DNA from: an uncultured Verrucomicrobiae bacterium
GTDB taxonomy: Bacteria; Verrucomicrobiota; Verrucomicrobiia; Chthoniobacterales; Xiphinematobacteraceae
Length of the DNA stretch: 64,000 nt
Reading direction: 5' to 3'
NCBI GenBank assembly: GCA_963706715.1
Contig: CAVPNI010000003.1
Span: forward strand, 32,001-96,000
The notes beneath the pieces were generated by a model. That model did not search any database. It had not been told where the DNA came from and saw only the letters and a program-made list of their open reading frames with translations. Position numbers and translations under genes: made by a program. Below, in pieces: positions 32,004 to 35,329 of this stretch; position 1 is the stretch's first letter; every line of letters starts with the position of its first letter.

Positions 32004-32492
32004 TTACTCTATATGTTTCTTCCAAAAATCACCCCATATTCCCAGATCGATTTCTTTTTTTCCAAAATCATCGATCAGCTGGATTACAGCTTTATTTTGA
32101 AAATTCTCGTCAACTATAATCCAGCCATCCGGTTCTAAATTCACAAGCCGCTGCCAAAAAGCGTTGAAGATACTTACTGGCCAACTCAGAACCCCGAGCA
32201 TTTCAGCATTCCAAGGAATGATGAAGACTTCACCGCTTTTTGGAGGCAAGATATCCCCCATTTCATATTGTGCCGCTAACGGAAAGCGTCGCTCCAATAC
32301 ACCGGATAAAATGTCGTTTCTGGCTGAAAAAGCTTTAGACGCTCGATCGCGCACCTTATCGCTATCTTCCAGAGTAAGGAATTCAGTCGCTTCCTCTGGA
32401 ACGCCAACTTTCCGCAGATTCTCGACAAACTTAGACTTGTGAACTACGCCCAAGTTTTTTCGGCGAAGGATATCTAAACGGCTATTCTCCAT
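32004..32492 (-). CDS. putative immunity protein for the Ntox47-like toxin
   Basis: 162-aa orphan ORF whose start overlaps the toxin stop by 11 nt. Confidence 0.65.
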   Translation of the reverse strand: MENSRLDILRRKNLGVVHKSKFVENLRKVGVPEEATEFLTLEDSDKVRDRASKAFSARNDILSGVLERRFPLAAQYEMGDILPPKSGEVFIIPWNAEMLGVLSWPVSIFNAFWQRLVNLEPDGWIIVDENFQNKAVIQLIDDFGKKEIDLGIWGDFWKKHIE

Positions 32493-33554
32493 AATTTATC
32501 TTGATCTTTCCTTCATTGAAAACACGTACACGTCCTAGGGGATCAAGTCCATAGTCAGCGGGCGGCTTCACACTGCCTACTTCCCAGTGAGAAGGATGCC
32601 CCACAACCCGATCTGTAGTCTGTTGGGTGACGGCTAGTCGTTTGCCATGCGAGTTATATAGGTACTGCATCCCTGCATCAGTCCGCAGTTGGCTTACGGG
32701 TTGTTGACTTGTAGGTATACCCGCTATAAGCATGGATTGTTTACGTGCTGCATTCGATGTTAGTTGTTTCCCCGCAACAGAAGCGACGGCGGCGGATTTA
32801 CCCACAATGCCAATTGGCACTCCCGCGATGCCGACCTCGGGTGAGGCCAGCTATCGTGCCTGCGGTCCCGGGCTTGACACCCACGCTTTGCAGTCCTCTG
32901 GATATAGCTTGTGCGGTAAATGATTGTGCGGTTTGGCCTGTCCACATCTGTCGCAATCCAGCCGCGGTCAGATCGCCCCCATGCCCTACTAGTCCCACGC
33001 CCGCTGCCGTGCCAAACGGCGTGCGTGAGCTATTAAGGCTTTTCCAGCAAATCCCTCGAGTATTCCTCCTGCTGCCATAAATGCTCCAGCAACTCTGTTC
33101 CCTAGCCGTCCTCGCTTCTCAATTTTTTCATCCGCAGACTCTTTCGGTTTTCGGGGCTTTTCTGATTTTTCCTGGCTACTCTCGCTTTTTCTGCCATCGG
33201 TCACGCGCGGCGGTGCAGTTGTTGGCGTCGATGTTACAGAAGGAGGAGTCATTGATTTGCGAACATGTATTGGTGCGCTAGCGCCGCAGCATCCAACTCC
33301 AGTATGACCCCCGCCGGAGCTGCCACCTTGACTGGAACTGGACTTGCCGCTTCCACTAGAACTGGACTTGCTGCCTCCACTGGAACTAGCTCTGCCGCCT
33401 CCTCCACTGGAACCGCCGCCACCTCCGCCTCCGCGAGATCCTCCTCTTGCGCCTCTCTTAATACGTCTACTCGTCTCTGCAACAGAAGGTCGTGAAGCAT
33501 TGTCCCATTTGGATCGTTTAGTAGAGTGGACTCGTTCCCTTTCACGTATCGCAG
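32482..33554 (-). pseudogene. orphan polymorphic toxin module with Ntox47-like RNase tip; 5'-truncated by IS ends, two indels
   Basis: 32797..33487 duplicates 34238..35000. The unique tip is GIPTSQQPVSQ...QQTTDR..GHPSHWEVG.VK...GR. There is a 1-bp deletion at ~33028 and a 1-bp insertion at ~32840. Confidence 0.8.
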
Positions 33555-33717
33555 CTCCAATCGCTGGGGTCAGGTCAATGGCTTCCTTGGCGTACTGTCC
33601 ACTTTTTCAGCACCACTTCACGTCAGTTCTTCTTCCCTTTTTATTTTCAAAACTTGTTCGCGAAACTTCAGTGGATACATTCTCTAAATATAATCGTTTT
33701 ATAGTTCATTCGCTATA
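33555..33717 (-). mobile_element. stack of IS ends: IS630 left end with 20 transposase codons, plus two IS3-type IRs
   Basis: Minus strand reads TATAGCGAATGAACTATAAAACGA, MYPLKFREQVLKIKREEELT (cf. the IS630 at 31720), TGAAGTGGTGCTGAAAAAGTGGACAG, then TGACCTGACCCCAGCGATTGGAG. Confidence 0.8.
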
Positions 33718-33947
33718 GCAGGTTTCCAGTCGTCTTCAGTCAGCCCCCATCGAACATATGCTTCTCGTTGTGCCTCCGATCGCGTAGGATGCCAGCTATC
33801 AAAATCAGAGCCTTCATCCAAATTTTGGTGACCATAAAGATACCAACCGCCGGTATTTTTTGAATCTTCTTCCAAGATAATCCACCGGATGTTTTGTGCT
33901 TGGCTGGCAGGTGATACTTGTGCAATCAAACGACTTTGTGGCTTCAT
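33699..33947 (-). CDS. putative immunity protein for the BECR-type toxin
   Basis: ATGA overlap with the toxin stop; small acidic, Trp-rich protein GWYLY...DSWH...A..EA...WG....W. Confidence 0.75.
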   Translation of the reverse strand: MKPQSRLIAQVSPASQAQNIRWIILEEDSKNTGGWYLYGHQNLDEGSDFDSWHPTRSEAQREAYVRWGLTEDDWKPAIANEL

Positions 33948-35329
33948 GGAACAATCAGTGGTGTGTGGATATTTTTCAAAGTCACTCCAGTCAAGTCGAA
34001 TTTTTCAAAATGGACATGTGGACCAATCTTGCCATGGCTTCCACTAATATCAGTTGCTGACATTCTAAATTGGCGTAATCCATCAGCAGAACGATAAACA
34101 CCGGAGCCAGGATTTCCAAGCTCACTATAACCTGGCTTAAGCCATTTTTCAGCCGTTGTAATTGCACTGTCTATTGTTCGCGATCCAGAGGTAACATTAA
34201 CAAGGCCTCTTGTCCCTTTTGCAGCAATGGCTCCTGCTTTACCCACAATGCCAATTGGCACTCCCGCGATGCCGACCTCGGTGAGGCCAGCTATCGTGCC
34301 TGCGGTCCCGGGCTTGACACCCACGCTTTGCAGTCCTCTGGATATAGCTTGTGCGGTAAATGATTGTGCGGTTTGGCCTGTCCACATCTGTCGCAATCCA
34401 GCCGCGGTCAGATCGCCCCCATGCCCTACTAGTCCCACGCCCGCTGCCGTGCCAAACGGCGTGCGTGATGCTATTAAGGCTTTTCCAGCAAATCCCTCGA
34501 GTATTCCTCCTGCTGCCATAAATGCTCCAGCAACTCTGTTCCCTAGCCGTCCTCGCTTCTCAATTTTTTCATCCGCAGACTCTTTCGGTTTTCGGGGCTT
34601 TTCTGATTTTTCCTGGCTACTCTCGCTTTTTCTGCCATCGGTCACGCGCGGCGGTGCAGTTGTTGGCGTCGATGTTACAGAAGGAGGAGTCATTGATTTG
34701 CGAACATGTATTGGTGCGCTAGCGCCGCAGCATCCAACTCCAGTATGACCCCCGCCGGAGCTGCCACCTTGACTGGAACTGGACTTGCCGCCTCTGCTGG
34801 AACTGGACTTGCCGCTTCCACTGGAACTGGACTTGCCGCTTCCACTAGAACTGGACTTGCTGCCTCCACTGGAACTGGACTTGCTGCCTCCACTGGAACT
34901 GGCTCTGCCGCCTCCTCCACTGGAACCGCCGCCACCTCCGCCTCCGCGAGATCCTCCTCTTGCGCCTCTCTTAATACGTCTACTCGTCTCTGCAACAGAA
35001 CTCTGATCGTCTTCCTGAAGACTCGTTACCCCAGAAAAGGAAACGACAGGCTCACGTAGAATATCTCCTCCTTTGTTGCTTGGAAAAATTTTTCCAACCG
35101 ATCCGCTTGTTAATCGAGTAGATCCTTGAATAAAGCTTCTGTGCAATTTCTGGAGCGTTTGAGAATCCTTTCCTCCTTCTATTAATTTTGGTTGATCAGA
35201 TCGGATCGGAATTCTTGCAGTAGCGTCATTGGCCTCTGCAAATTCATCATGCATCTGTTGTGTTCCTTGTACCTGGGACATCCTGGTACCTGAGAACGGT
35301 ATGCTACTAAAACGAAAAATTTGGTTCAT
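33944..35329 (-). CDS. polymorphic toxin with Gly/Ser repeat scaffold and C-terminal BECR-fold RNase (CdiA-CT NC101-like)
   Basis: C-terminal WL.PGY...SADGLRQFR...HVHFE...KNIH, preceded by a hydrophobic GLVGHGGD..AAGLRQMWTG segment. Start uncertain (35329 or 35281). Confidence 0.8.
   Translation of the reverse strand: MNQIFRFSSIPFSGTRMSQVQGTQQMHDEFAEANDATARIPIRSDQPKLIEGGKDSQTLQKLHRSFIQGSTRLTSGSVGKIFPSNKGGDILREPVVSFSGVTSLQEDDQSSVAETSRRIKRGARGGSRGGGGGGGSSGGGGRASSSGGSKSSSSGGSKSSSSGSGKSSSSGSGKSSSSRGGKSSSSQGGSSGGGHTGVGCCGASAPIHVRKSMTPPSVTSTPTTAPPRVTDGRKSESSQEKSEKPRKPKESADEKIEKRGRLGNRVAGAFMAAGGILEGFAGKALIASRTPFGTAAGVGLVGHGGDLTAAGLRQMWTGQTAQSFTAQAISRGLQSVGVKPGTAGTIAGLTEVGIAGVPIGIVGKAGAIAAKGTRGLVNVTSGSRTIDSAITTAEKWLKPGYSELGNPGSGVYRSADGLRQFRMSATDISGSHGKIGPHVHFEKFDLTGVTLKNIHTPLIVP
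34773..34916 (-). repeat. 24-bp coding tandem repeat (6 units, GGSKSSSS-type); 3 units in the duplicate at 33332..33403
   Basis: Unit CTGGAACTGGACTTGCyGCyTCCA read directly from the sequence. Confidence 0.9.

Follow-up and report, generated by a model that had tools for sequence, protein, structure and literature searches.

The locus considered here lies on the minus strand of a 64,000-nucleotide (nt) stretch of DNA, the window, from an uncultured Verrucomicrobiae bacterium (GenBank assembly GCA_963706715.1, contig CAVPNI010000003.1, positions 32,001 to 96,000). It holds a toxin gene, tox1, followed directly by a small gene, imm1, and beyond these a second toxin tip with a small gene of its own, imm2. 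As a sequence-only reading had proposed, this is a polymorphic toxin/immunity locus in which different tips are attached to a common segment, and we consider it quite probable that the whole derives from the Rhs polymorphic-toxin system of this genome and comprises one cognate immunity pair and one orphan. Its features, with lengths in amino acids (aa), are as follows.

33944..35329, minus strand: tox1, 461 aa, its likely start the ATG of MNQIF, picked by alignment with the N-termini of Rhs proteins (MNQISHP..)
34967..35329, minus strand: N-terminal domain of tox1, aa 1-121, ending in an invariant R-I-K-R; candidate export domain
34712..34966, minus strand: Ser/Gly/Lys-rich linker of 24-nt tandem units, inserted after RIKR
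34562..34711, minus strand: Pro/Thr-rich, then Lys/Glu-rich linker, the first part reading IHVRKSMTPPSVTSTP
34214..34561, minus strand: scaffold, aa 257-372, an Rhs post-core pre-toxin module
33947..34213, minus strand: tip 1, aa 373-461, with the motif RSADGLRQFR...PHVHFE...N.H and no Pfam family
33699..33947, minus strand: imm1, 82 aa, isoelectric point (pI) 4.8, cognate immunity protein of tip 1
32797..33487, minus strand: part of the orphan cassette, homologous to 34238..35000 and copied from it or with it, untranslatable in its present state
32482..32796, minus strand: tip 2, 104 aa, pI 9.8, an orphan toxin tip with no family assigned
32004..32492, minus strand: imm2, 162 aa, pI 5.3, an intact open reading frame (ORF), presumed immunity protein of tip 2
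30895..31735, minus strand: IS630-type transposase, a helix-turn-helix ORF and a DDE ORF (Pfam HTH_Tnp_IS630 and DDE_3), flanking the locus

The open frame that holds tox1 runs over 489 codons (33944..35413, minus strand). The duplication of 34238..35000 at 32797..33487 is real, with blocks of 300 nt (33029-33328 = 34470-34769) and 189 nt (32840-33028 = 34280-34468) that are 100% identical between the copies. Alignment of the two also bears out the abrupt switch described earlier: identity stops directly after the VPIGIVGK codons, and two unrelated tips lie beyond. Each toxin frame is coupled to its small gene, as had been stated, the tox1 stop and the imm1 start overlapping as ATGA and the tip 2 frame overlapping the start of imm2 by 11 nt; both tips are basic and both small partner proteins acidic. 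A shared block of 690 nt followed by two unrelated tips, together with other scaffold copies bearing further tips, is the alternation of tips by which polymorphic toxins are recognized. The description of the locus as two tandem toxin pairs holds for the two tips and their two overlapping small genes but not for the toxin genes themselves, as copy 2 has no start and carries two indels.

Relative to copy 1, copy 2 lacks 72 nt, corresponding to three of the 24-nt Ser/Gly repeat units, has lost 1 nt at 33028/33029 and gained 1 nt near 32840, and differs in no more than three substitutions. Between the two indels its frame is shifted and runs into stops. The sequence preceding the repeat stays open in the correct frame over just some 50 codons, with no ATG, GTG or TTG before the Met of MTPPSV and nothing that resembles the N-terminal domain. 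Were both indels errors of assembly, the longest product would start at that Met and would still be without the N-terminal domain. Copy 2 is a 5'-truncated orphan cassette and not a second toxin gene, and the retention of a homology block by a cassette that has neither start nor N-terminal domain is what is seen in the standalone tip-immunity cassettes of polymorphic toxins. The cassette is either decaying or was miscalled at two bases in the assembly, the two sequencing runs found containing only 0.07 and 0.08 of the sampled words. The homology block, tip 2 and imm2 together may form a source from which tox1 could acquire an alternative tip by recombination, and imm2 might protect the cell against kin that carry tip 2.

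Tip 2 had been likened to Ntox47, for which Pfam presumably holds a model, and this likeness found no support, the 112-aa ORF of tip 2 matching no Pfam family at E<=1. NCBIfam, PADLOC and the sequences of the PDB gave no match, a scan of a collection of genome contigs found no relative among 219 pattern-matched stretches, and a search of the Atlas returned scores of only 0.88-0.89, under the lead threshold of 0.9. For imm2 there is likewise no family in Pfam, NCBIfam or PADLOC, and no relative among 112 pattern-matched stretches of metagenome contigs, leaving the 11-nt overlap as the linkage of this pair, without relatives of either partner. The Ser/Gly repeat of both copies also yields, in another frame, a long ORF with a high content of Glu, Ala, Pro and Val (33249..33560 and 34690..34995, minus strand), which is probably a by-product of the composition of the repeat.

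The origin of the scaffold emerges from the organism's own genome (3.04 Mb in four contigs, C1 to C4, 100% complete by marker genes), in which a search with tox1 gave 15 matches. Six further scaffold copies (C4:1-729, C1:2-727, C1:12071-13096, C4:16748-17479, C4:20713-21726 and C2:335280-335633) align with that of tox1 at 38-52% identity, and every one of them opens with N[DN]P..DPxGR[FL]GK, the motif that ends the Rhs core, or with a degenerate form of it. Just before the scaffold, one copy matches the Rhs_assc_core model TIGR03696 over positions 42-75 of 76 (E 1e-6), a match that falls under the cut-off as the core end alone is present. Five of the six carry a tip and a small ORF, the tips representing on our reading four or more other kinds; the copy at C2:335280-335633 is truncated and has no tip. 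Across the phylum, a profile of the seven sequences found the scaffold in 6 of 400 other genomes, where it follows directly on the ...DP[LF]GL of a YD-repeat protein wherever the flanks are readable. In tox1 itself EKRGRLGN stands where the six paralogues show DPxGRFGK or DSDEGLG, and the next 13 residues are missing.

These observations change the standing of the scaffold, which had been put forward as an unrecognised delivery scaffold and possibly as the mark of an undescribed toxin class. Pfam and NCBIfam find no Rhs, PAAR, LXG or MafB domain in tox1, and to that extent the earlier reading was right; but because both the scaffold and the N-terminal domain are homologous to parts of RHS-repeat proteins, the claim of a new scaffold without Rhs is refuted on the terms that the earlier reading had itself set. 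The scaffold is the post-core module of Rhs proteins, its further copies with other tips are each tied to an Rhs core end, and the class is not new. It is the parts that are undescribed, namely the N-terminal domain, the post-core hairpin, the tip 1 family and the imm1 family. One might still argue for a toxin class and a delivery scaffold unrelated to Rhs, CdiA or any other known carrier, given that tox1 has no family in Pfam or NCBIfam and the scaffold none in Pfam, PT-TG included, yet with the homology just described, and with tip 1 occurring on Rhs, HINT, VENN and DUF637 carriers, we find this hardly credible.

The scaffold is glycine-rich and hydrophobic, with tox1 hydropathy peaking at aa 266-288 and 341-372. 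AlphaFold2 (AF2), run on a 207-aa query with a 14-row alignment, predicts a hairpin of helices 2-33 and 37-63 with a predicted local distance difference test (pLDDT) score of 77-87, two shorter helices after it, a disordered linker across VPIGIVGK and then the tip. Foldseek returned nothing at E<=0.001 for this scaffold-plus-tip model. An identification of the scaffold with PT-TG was considered and rejected: none of the seven sequences matches PF14449 at E<=10, the Pfam search giving three chance-level matches only, and hhalign against P0020, a protein with a precomputed PF14449 annotation, gave a probability of 0.1%.

The head of tox1 also has its relatives among Rhs proteins. Residues 1-121 align with five other N-termini of the genome at 38-44% identity with 33 invariant columns. 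Four of these N-termini belong to full-length proteins (1396-1626 aa) and the fifth to a truncated copy; we call this group family A. RHS_repeat was found in all three of the full-length family-A proteins that were scanned, one of which also has DUF6531 and YD repeats. Between the tox1 domain and the other copies identity is about 40%; the latter show 52-65% identity to the copy in L011. The Ser/Gly repeat, of period 24, is absent from the Rhs paralogues, and the IHVRKSMTPPSVTSTP that follows this insertion in tox1 resembles the IPIHKPVTQISVTSLP of family A, by eye and with no statistic attached. That the N-terminal ~125 aa belong to no known family, as had been claimed, was confirmed by searches of Pfam and NCBIfam and by a profile of the domain, which matched none of 60 relatives, including four genomes of the same genus, and had a single match in 1.84 billion representative proteins; a search of the Atlas with aa 1-125 gave no usable match. 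The single match, P0032, was judged spurious, being a repeat protein matched in five short stretches. The reported lack of a signal peptide was likewise confirmed: neither the first 250 aa of tox1 nor any of the six N-termini contains a hydrophobic segment of the signal type.

The family-A loci are classic in layout: an rhs gene, a lipoprotein-like small ORF, and then orphan Rhs C-terminal fragments with further small ORFs. The small ORFs that follow the family-A genes (C1:225969-226478, C1:532973-533467, C2:383654-384163 and C3:495227-495817) have a hydrophobic N-terminus ending in GGC, which is lipobox-like, and because of this the toxins of these loci may be suspected of acting in the periplasm, unlike tips 1 and 2. 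Between about aa 150 and 600 the family-A proteins (C1:226436-231328 and its paralogues) contain (QQEQAR)n and, between this and DUF6531, Trp/Glu/Gln-rich repeats that extend over several hundred residues; no Pfam family matches this region.

A second group of Rhs proteins, family B, was found by tblastn with a family-A protein. These are four giant proteins, 40-45% identical to it, whose open frames extend over 2075-3268 codons and whose N-termini resemble Sec signal peptides (C1:821892-830237, C4:545577-551801, C3:764270-773455 and C4:243311-253114), and both of the two that were scanned carry RHS_repeat and DUF6531. Two of the giants are cut off within the core end, where C1 and C4 stop (...ISPDSYGHFASWDLYSLAKND and ...ISPDPFGHFGSL), and the opening sequence of both contigs is exactly the DPDGR motif (NDPVNFADPDGRLGK and NNPIAYCDPDGRFGK), after which come scaffold and tip. 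The simplest reading of these sequences, one that spans the assembly breaks, would be that scaffold-type modules are the natural C-termini of the signal-peptide family, the assembly seeming to break at the junction of Rhs body and C-terminal module. At C4:4996-23000 and C1:11000-13500 orphan Rhs C-terminal modules stand in arrays, interleaved with transposases; every module has a small ORF behind it, and one of these small ORFs matches DUF2489 (E 4.6e-9).

Homologues of tip 1 are more widely distributed. Searches with whole tox1, at two lengths, were swamped by Ser/Gly words and gave from about 8000 candidates only 3 and 2 non-self matches, all of them through tip 1, whereas a search with aa 352-461 brought up 242 candidates, of which 28 passed at E<=1e-3, tox1 itself among them, so that 27 non-self proteins remain. 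The domain is always C-terminal. Five of the 27 are named in their source as RHS repeat-associated and one as a VENN pre-toxin, and ten have precomputed Pfam families (PF25023, PF05593, PF07591, PF14449, PF04829 and PF04830); going by the names that we take these families to bear, RHS_repeat and VENN apart, the carriers are presumably of Rhs, HINT, VENN and DUF637/CdiA types. Across the family E403, S414, D416, R422, P437 and H438 are invariant, and R413, R419, H432, H440, N453 and H455 are at least 90% conserved. Tip 1 has no match in Pfam or NCBIfam and by sequence no PDB chain below E 0.34. In the Pfam searches as a whole, weak matches to Peptidase_M74 (E 0.034), VCX_VCY (E 0.017), DUF4258 (E 2e-4, below the cut-off) and WXG100_2 (E 0.23) were set aside as chance-level.

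The AF2 model of tip 1 has a mean pLDDT of 82, rising above 90 from residue 30. Foldseek placed 5t86_A first (E 0.072, probability 0.90, template modelling score 0.44/0.46) with no match at E<=0.001, and in a comparison with 48,161 chains 5t86_A was again first and alone above Z 5, with Z 5.9, a root-mean-square deviation of 3.4 A over 77 residues and 13% identity (next chain 4.3), where a Z below 8 possibly reflects a common arrangement and even models that lack a clear match typically reach 7-8 as their best Z. Tip 1 had been proposed as a CdiA-CT NC101-type BECR tRNase, and the results agree with this in part: the sole fold match is indeed a CdiA-CT, if a weak one, but the NC101 toxin is absent from the match lists shown, as are BECR members other than 5T86 and the colicin and RelE folds from the fold-match lists shown. 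The available part of a 2026 preprint (bioRxiv 10.64898/2026.05.10.723254) classes Salmonella Rhs2 as an EF-Tu-binding BECR nuclease by way of 5T86, and the part seen of a 2022 paper assigns 5T86 a VOC-type metal site. In the model of tip 1 an H-x-H-x-E strand lies beside an N-x-H strand, an arrangement that would suit a His/Glu nuclease site or a metal site equally.

The role of imm1 as cognate immunity protein of tip 1 is supported by its ATGA coupling, by linkage across phyla and by a model of the complex. A metagenome-assembled genome of Hydrogenedentota (L042, JAJRPE010000482.1) encodes a 291-aa protein with a signal-peptide-like N-terminus that ends in a tip 1 homologue (55% identity), and ATGA-coupled to it is an ORF for 75 aa with 49% identity to imm1 (E 1e-25); the ORF that follows the paralogous tip in L007 resembles imm1 weakly (E 0.031). 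Modelled complexes of tip 1 and imm1 scored 0.47, 0.70 and 0.66 (median 0.66) against 0.01 for the best control. Among 157 solved complexes 116 attained the mark concerned, and among 215 mismatched pairs 2 did so, counts that are only a rough guide here, where our own alignments were used. The runs share at least 91% of their contacts, with a partner pLDDT of at least 77, and the predicted interface takes in R422, H432, H440, E442, N453 and H455, all of which supports the binding of tip 1 by imm1.

Small acidic partner genes that overlap the ends of basic toxins might equally bring to mind intracellular toxin-antitoxin or phage-defence modules, an account of the two pairs that we regard as very improbable. 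In the usual toxin-antitoxin layout the antitoxin gene more often comes first, and the toxins have no N-terminal extensions of 370 aa. PADLOC families were found in none of the four proteins, Rhs, VENN and HINT carriers elsewhere end in tip 1, and swapped tips accompanied by orphans are the architecture of polymorphic toxins in the consulted part of Zhang et al. 2012 (PMC3482391).

How tox1 might leave the cell is a separate matter. The earlier reading had noted that no secretion gene stands alongside, and the Pfam scan agrees, the neighbours of the locus being the IS630 transposase and kdp genes. For type III and type VI secretion systems (T3SS and T6SS) and extracellular contractile injection systems, an inventory of the genome gave a mixed answer. 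An injectisome-type cluster is present at C2:61000-73500, with YscJ, YscK, FliH, T3SS ATPase, FliN, FliP, Bac_export_1, Bac_export_2 and FHIPEP (SctT/U/V-like), T3SS families being found in 8 of the 13 ORFs scanned beside FHIPEP and FHIPEP being additional to these; the T6SS sheath (VipB), PAAR and the phage-type sheath (Phage_sheath_1) each gave zero matches genome-wide, Hcp not having been searched for. Judged by adaptor (PAAR, VgrG or Hcp) and by machinery, tox1 does not qualify as a T6SS effector. There are four secretins, and a single Phage_GPD gene between an integrase fragment and an ISL3 transposase is, from its setting, a likely prophage remnant.

With this inventory the injectisome-type T3SS becomes, if tentatively, the best export candidate for tox1. 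By rules of thumb from the P. syringae literature, T3SS signals lack early acidic residues, are aliphatic or Pro at residue 3 or 4 and are Ser-rich. In each of the six N-termini residue 4 is Ile and the first acidic residue comes no earlier than 14, with 10-18% Ser and 38-42% S+T+P+Q+N in the first 50 aa. It could then be that tox1 and the family-A Rhs proteins are injectisome substrates, with the N-terminal domain as secretion signal and chaperone-binding region and with a eukaryotic host or other bacteria as targets. In keeping with this are the core T3SS genes, present where no T6SS sheath, PAAR or phage-type sheath was found, the fit of the N-termini without any hydrophobic segment, and the genomes of ~0.9 Mb in the genus, which suggest host association; a Waddlia Rhs-family protein, too, is tabulated among host-cytoplasm proteins in the part of its source available, though marked 'nd' for secretion. 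We nevertheless find it doubtful. The signal rules are met by 129 of 1409 long ORFs (9.2%), or 79 (5.6%) without hydrophobic N-termini, a folded YD shell would need unfolding to pass a T3SS, no chaperone gene lies beside these genes, and the lipoprotein-like small ORFs suit a periplasmic bacterial target better than the host cytosol. We know of no Rhs protein that passes a T3SS. A literature search in a limited collection found no report of one, and the T3SS is not among the polymorphic-toxin export routes listed in the portion available of Zhang et al. 2012. That the ~125-aa domain is a self-sufficient export module, serving shelled Rhs toxins and the shell-less tox1 alike through the injectisome or an undescribed route, strikes us as an improbable extension.

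Within the favoured derivation from the Rhs system, tox1 would be a chimera in which a family-A head (the N-terminal ~125-170 aa) is joined by the Ser/Gly repeat linker to an Rhs C-terminal module, with no shell between. In full-length Rhs proteins such a module begins at the core-end motif DPxGRFGK; in tox1 it would be a family-B-type tail consisting of the hydrophobic helical-hairpin pre-toxin segment and tip 1. In the producer, imm1 would bind tip 1 and cover its conserved Arg/His/Glu/Asn face. The N-terminal domain may direct export, the hairpin may help the tip to cross the target membrane, and tip 1 would then act in the target cytoplasm as an enzyme, probably a nuclease. The C-terminal module of tox1 is homologous to post-Rhs-core modules; RHS_repeat and YD matches are absent from tox1, while the same searches find such matches in L011, L012, L014, L043 and L044, and the DPxG...DPxGL autoproteolysis site of the Rhs core end is also missing.

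These absences lend themselves to another account, in which tox1 is a dead recombination product that lost its shell by deletion or illegitimate recombination and is no longer exported, the immunity genes being kept against the toxins of kin. Several observations point that way or otherwise weigh against the derivation set out above. The DPxG processing motif is lost together with the shell, the Ser/Gly repeat is prone to slippage and differs in copy number between the copies, and the gene adjoins a frameshifted, decaying orphan with IS630 at the flank. No RNA run that holds the locus was among the sequencing runs found. The fold match of tip 1 to 5T86 (E 0.072, Z 5.9) is weak, a lead and not an assignment, and 5T86 is itself an E. 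coli CdiA-CT/CdiI complex without a published mechanism in the sources at hand, its fold class disputed between BECR and VOC. The junction of family B and scaffold spans contig ends and is inferred, the ends sharing about 4 nt by eye, under the 8-nt floor of the overlap test. The T3SS-signal heuristics are weak evidence, the six N-termini counting as a single observation, and the toxin role of tip 2 and the immunity role of imm2 are presumed from position, overlap and charge.

Against a dead gene stand the intact frame of 461 aa with its ATGA coupling to imm1 retained, and the existence elsewhere of shell-less short carriers of tip 1 (L042, 291 aa, and P0028, 270 aa). Moreover, the N-terminal domain keeps 33 invariant positions, RIKR included, at only about 40% identity to the other copies, and because so divergent a domain has kept them we read its history as long survival under constraint and not as a recent accident. 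We regard a dead tox1 as a real possibility but an unlikely one, the odds that tox1 is a working exported toxin appearing to us about even.

Comparison with known systems places the locus more closely. Koskiniemi and colleagues reportedly described, in 2013, Rhs toxins of Enterobacteria with downstream orphan CT-immunity (C-terminal toxin and immunity) cassettes. Such systems share with ours a variable toxin after a conserved junction, an immunity gene next to it and a 5'-truncated orphan with a homology block of the main gene, and our genome has full-length versions as well. They differ in that tox1 is without YD shell, DUF6531 and DPxG autoproteolysis motif, and in that its N-terminus is lineage-specific and not a PAAR, a VgrG or a signal peptide, in a genome without T6SS sheath or PAAR. 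As far as the parts of the sources available go, 5T86 (CdiA-CT/CdiI of E. coli A0 34/86) and Salmonella Rhs2-SciX resemble tip 1 in being small alpha+beta toxins whose immunity protein, for tip 1 as modelled, sits on a conserved Asp/Glu-His-Arg face; 5T86 differs in its 13% identity, with no match at sequence level, and in that its activity is unpublished. The Hydrogenedentota protein shares with tox1 a tip 1 homologue followed by an imm1 homologue, but has a signal-peptide-like N-terminus, no scaffold and no tox1 N-terminal domain. P0028, from public data, is closer in build, a shell-less protein of scaffold and tip-1-like domain, but its N-terminus is short and unrelated.

For the N-terminal domain a parallel may be drawn in layout. 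The Salmonella T3SS effectors SifA, SseJ and SspH2 have a conserved N-terminal translocation domain and different C-terminal effector domains. Theirs and ours are alike in placing one module of ~120-140 aa on several proteins with different cargo in a genome that encodes an injectisome; here, by contrast, the cargo consists of Rhs shells and toxin tips with immunity genes. The scaffold, which has a conserved WTGQ, holds the position between carrier and toxin that is taken by PT-TG, PT-VENN and PT-HINT in the part consulted of Zhang et al. 2012, from all of which it differs in its lack of a Pfam match and its predicted hydrophobic helical hairpin.

Around the locus some further features may be recorded. 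A DDE fragment identical to that of the flanking IS630 transposase lies at C2:80735-81262, and the split of the transposase into two ORFs is either a frameshift or programmed. On the other side, a truncated kdpD (35625..36779) encodes the N-terminal sensor and Usp only and is kinase-less, and a 486-aa ORF without Pfam family (36764..38224, minus strand) lies between it and kdpC/kdpB, both being unusual in a kdp operon. Scans for promoters and terminators gave no more than chance predicts, 3 matches where 3.9 would be expected and 3 where 3.8 would be.

Rhs toxins are usually regarded as T6SS cargo, Sec-exported surface proteins or subunits of Tc toxins. Here a single genome, in which no T6SS sheath, PAAR or phage-type sheath was found, has two Rhs families, one with signal peptides and one with a private N-terminal domain, and tox1 would be a natural chimera that carries the private domain directly on a toxin module, shell-less. 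Should tox1 prove a mere relic, the locus would be ordinary debris of Rhs recombination. If it is exported, its N-terminal domain would mark a new trafficking route for polymorphic toxins, and the Rhs shell would be dispensable for the delivery of a hairpin-plus-tip module. Regardless of export, the locus provides the first description of three families: the tip 1 toxin, its immunity protein of 75-82 aa and the hydrophobic post-core hairpin.

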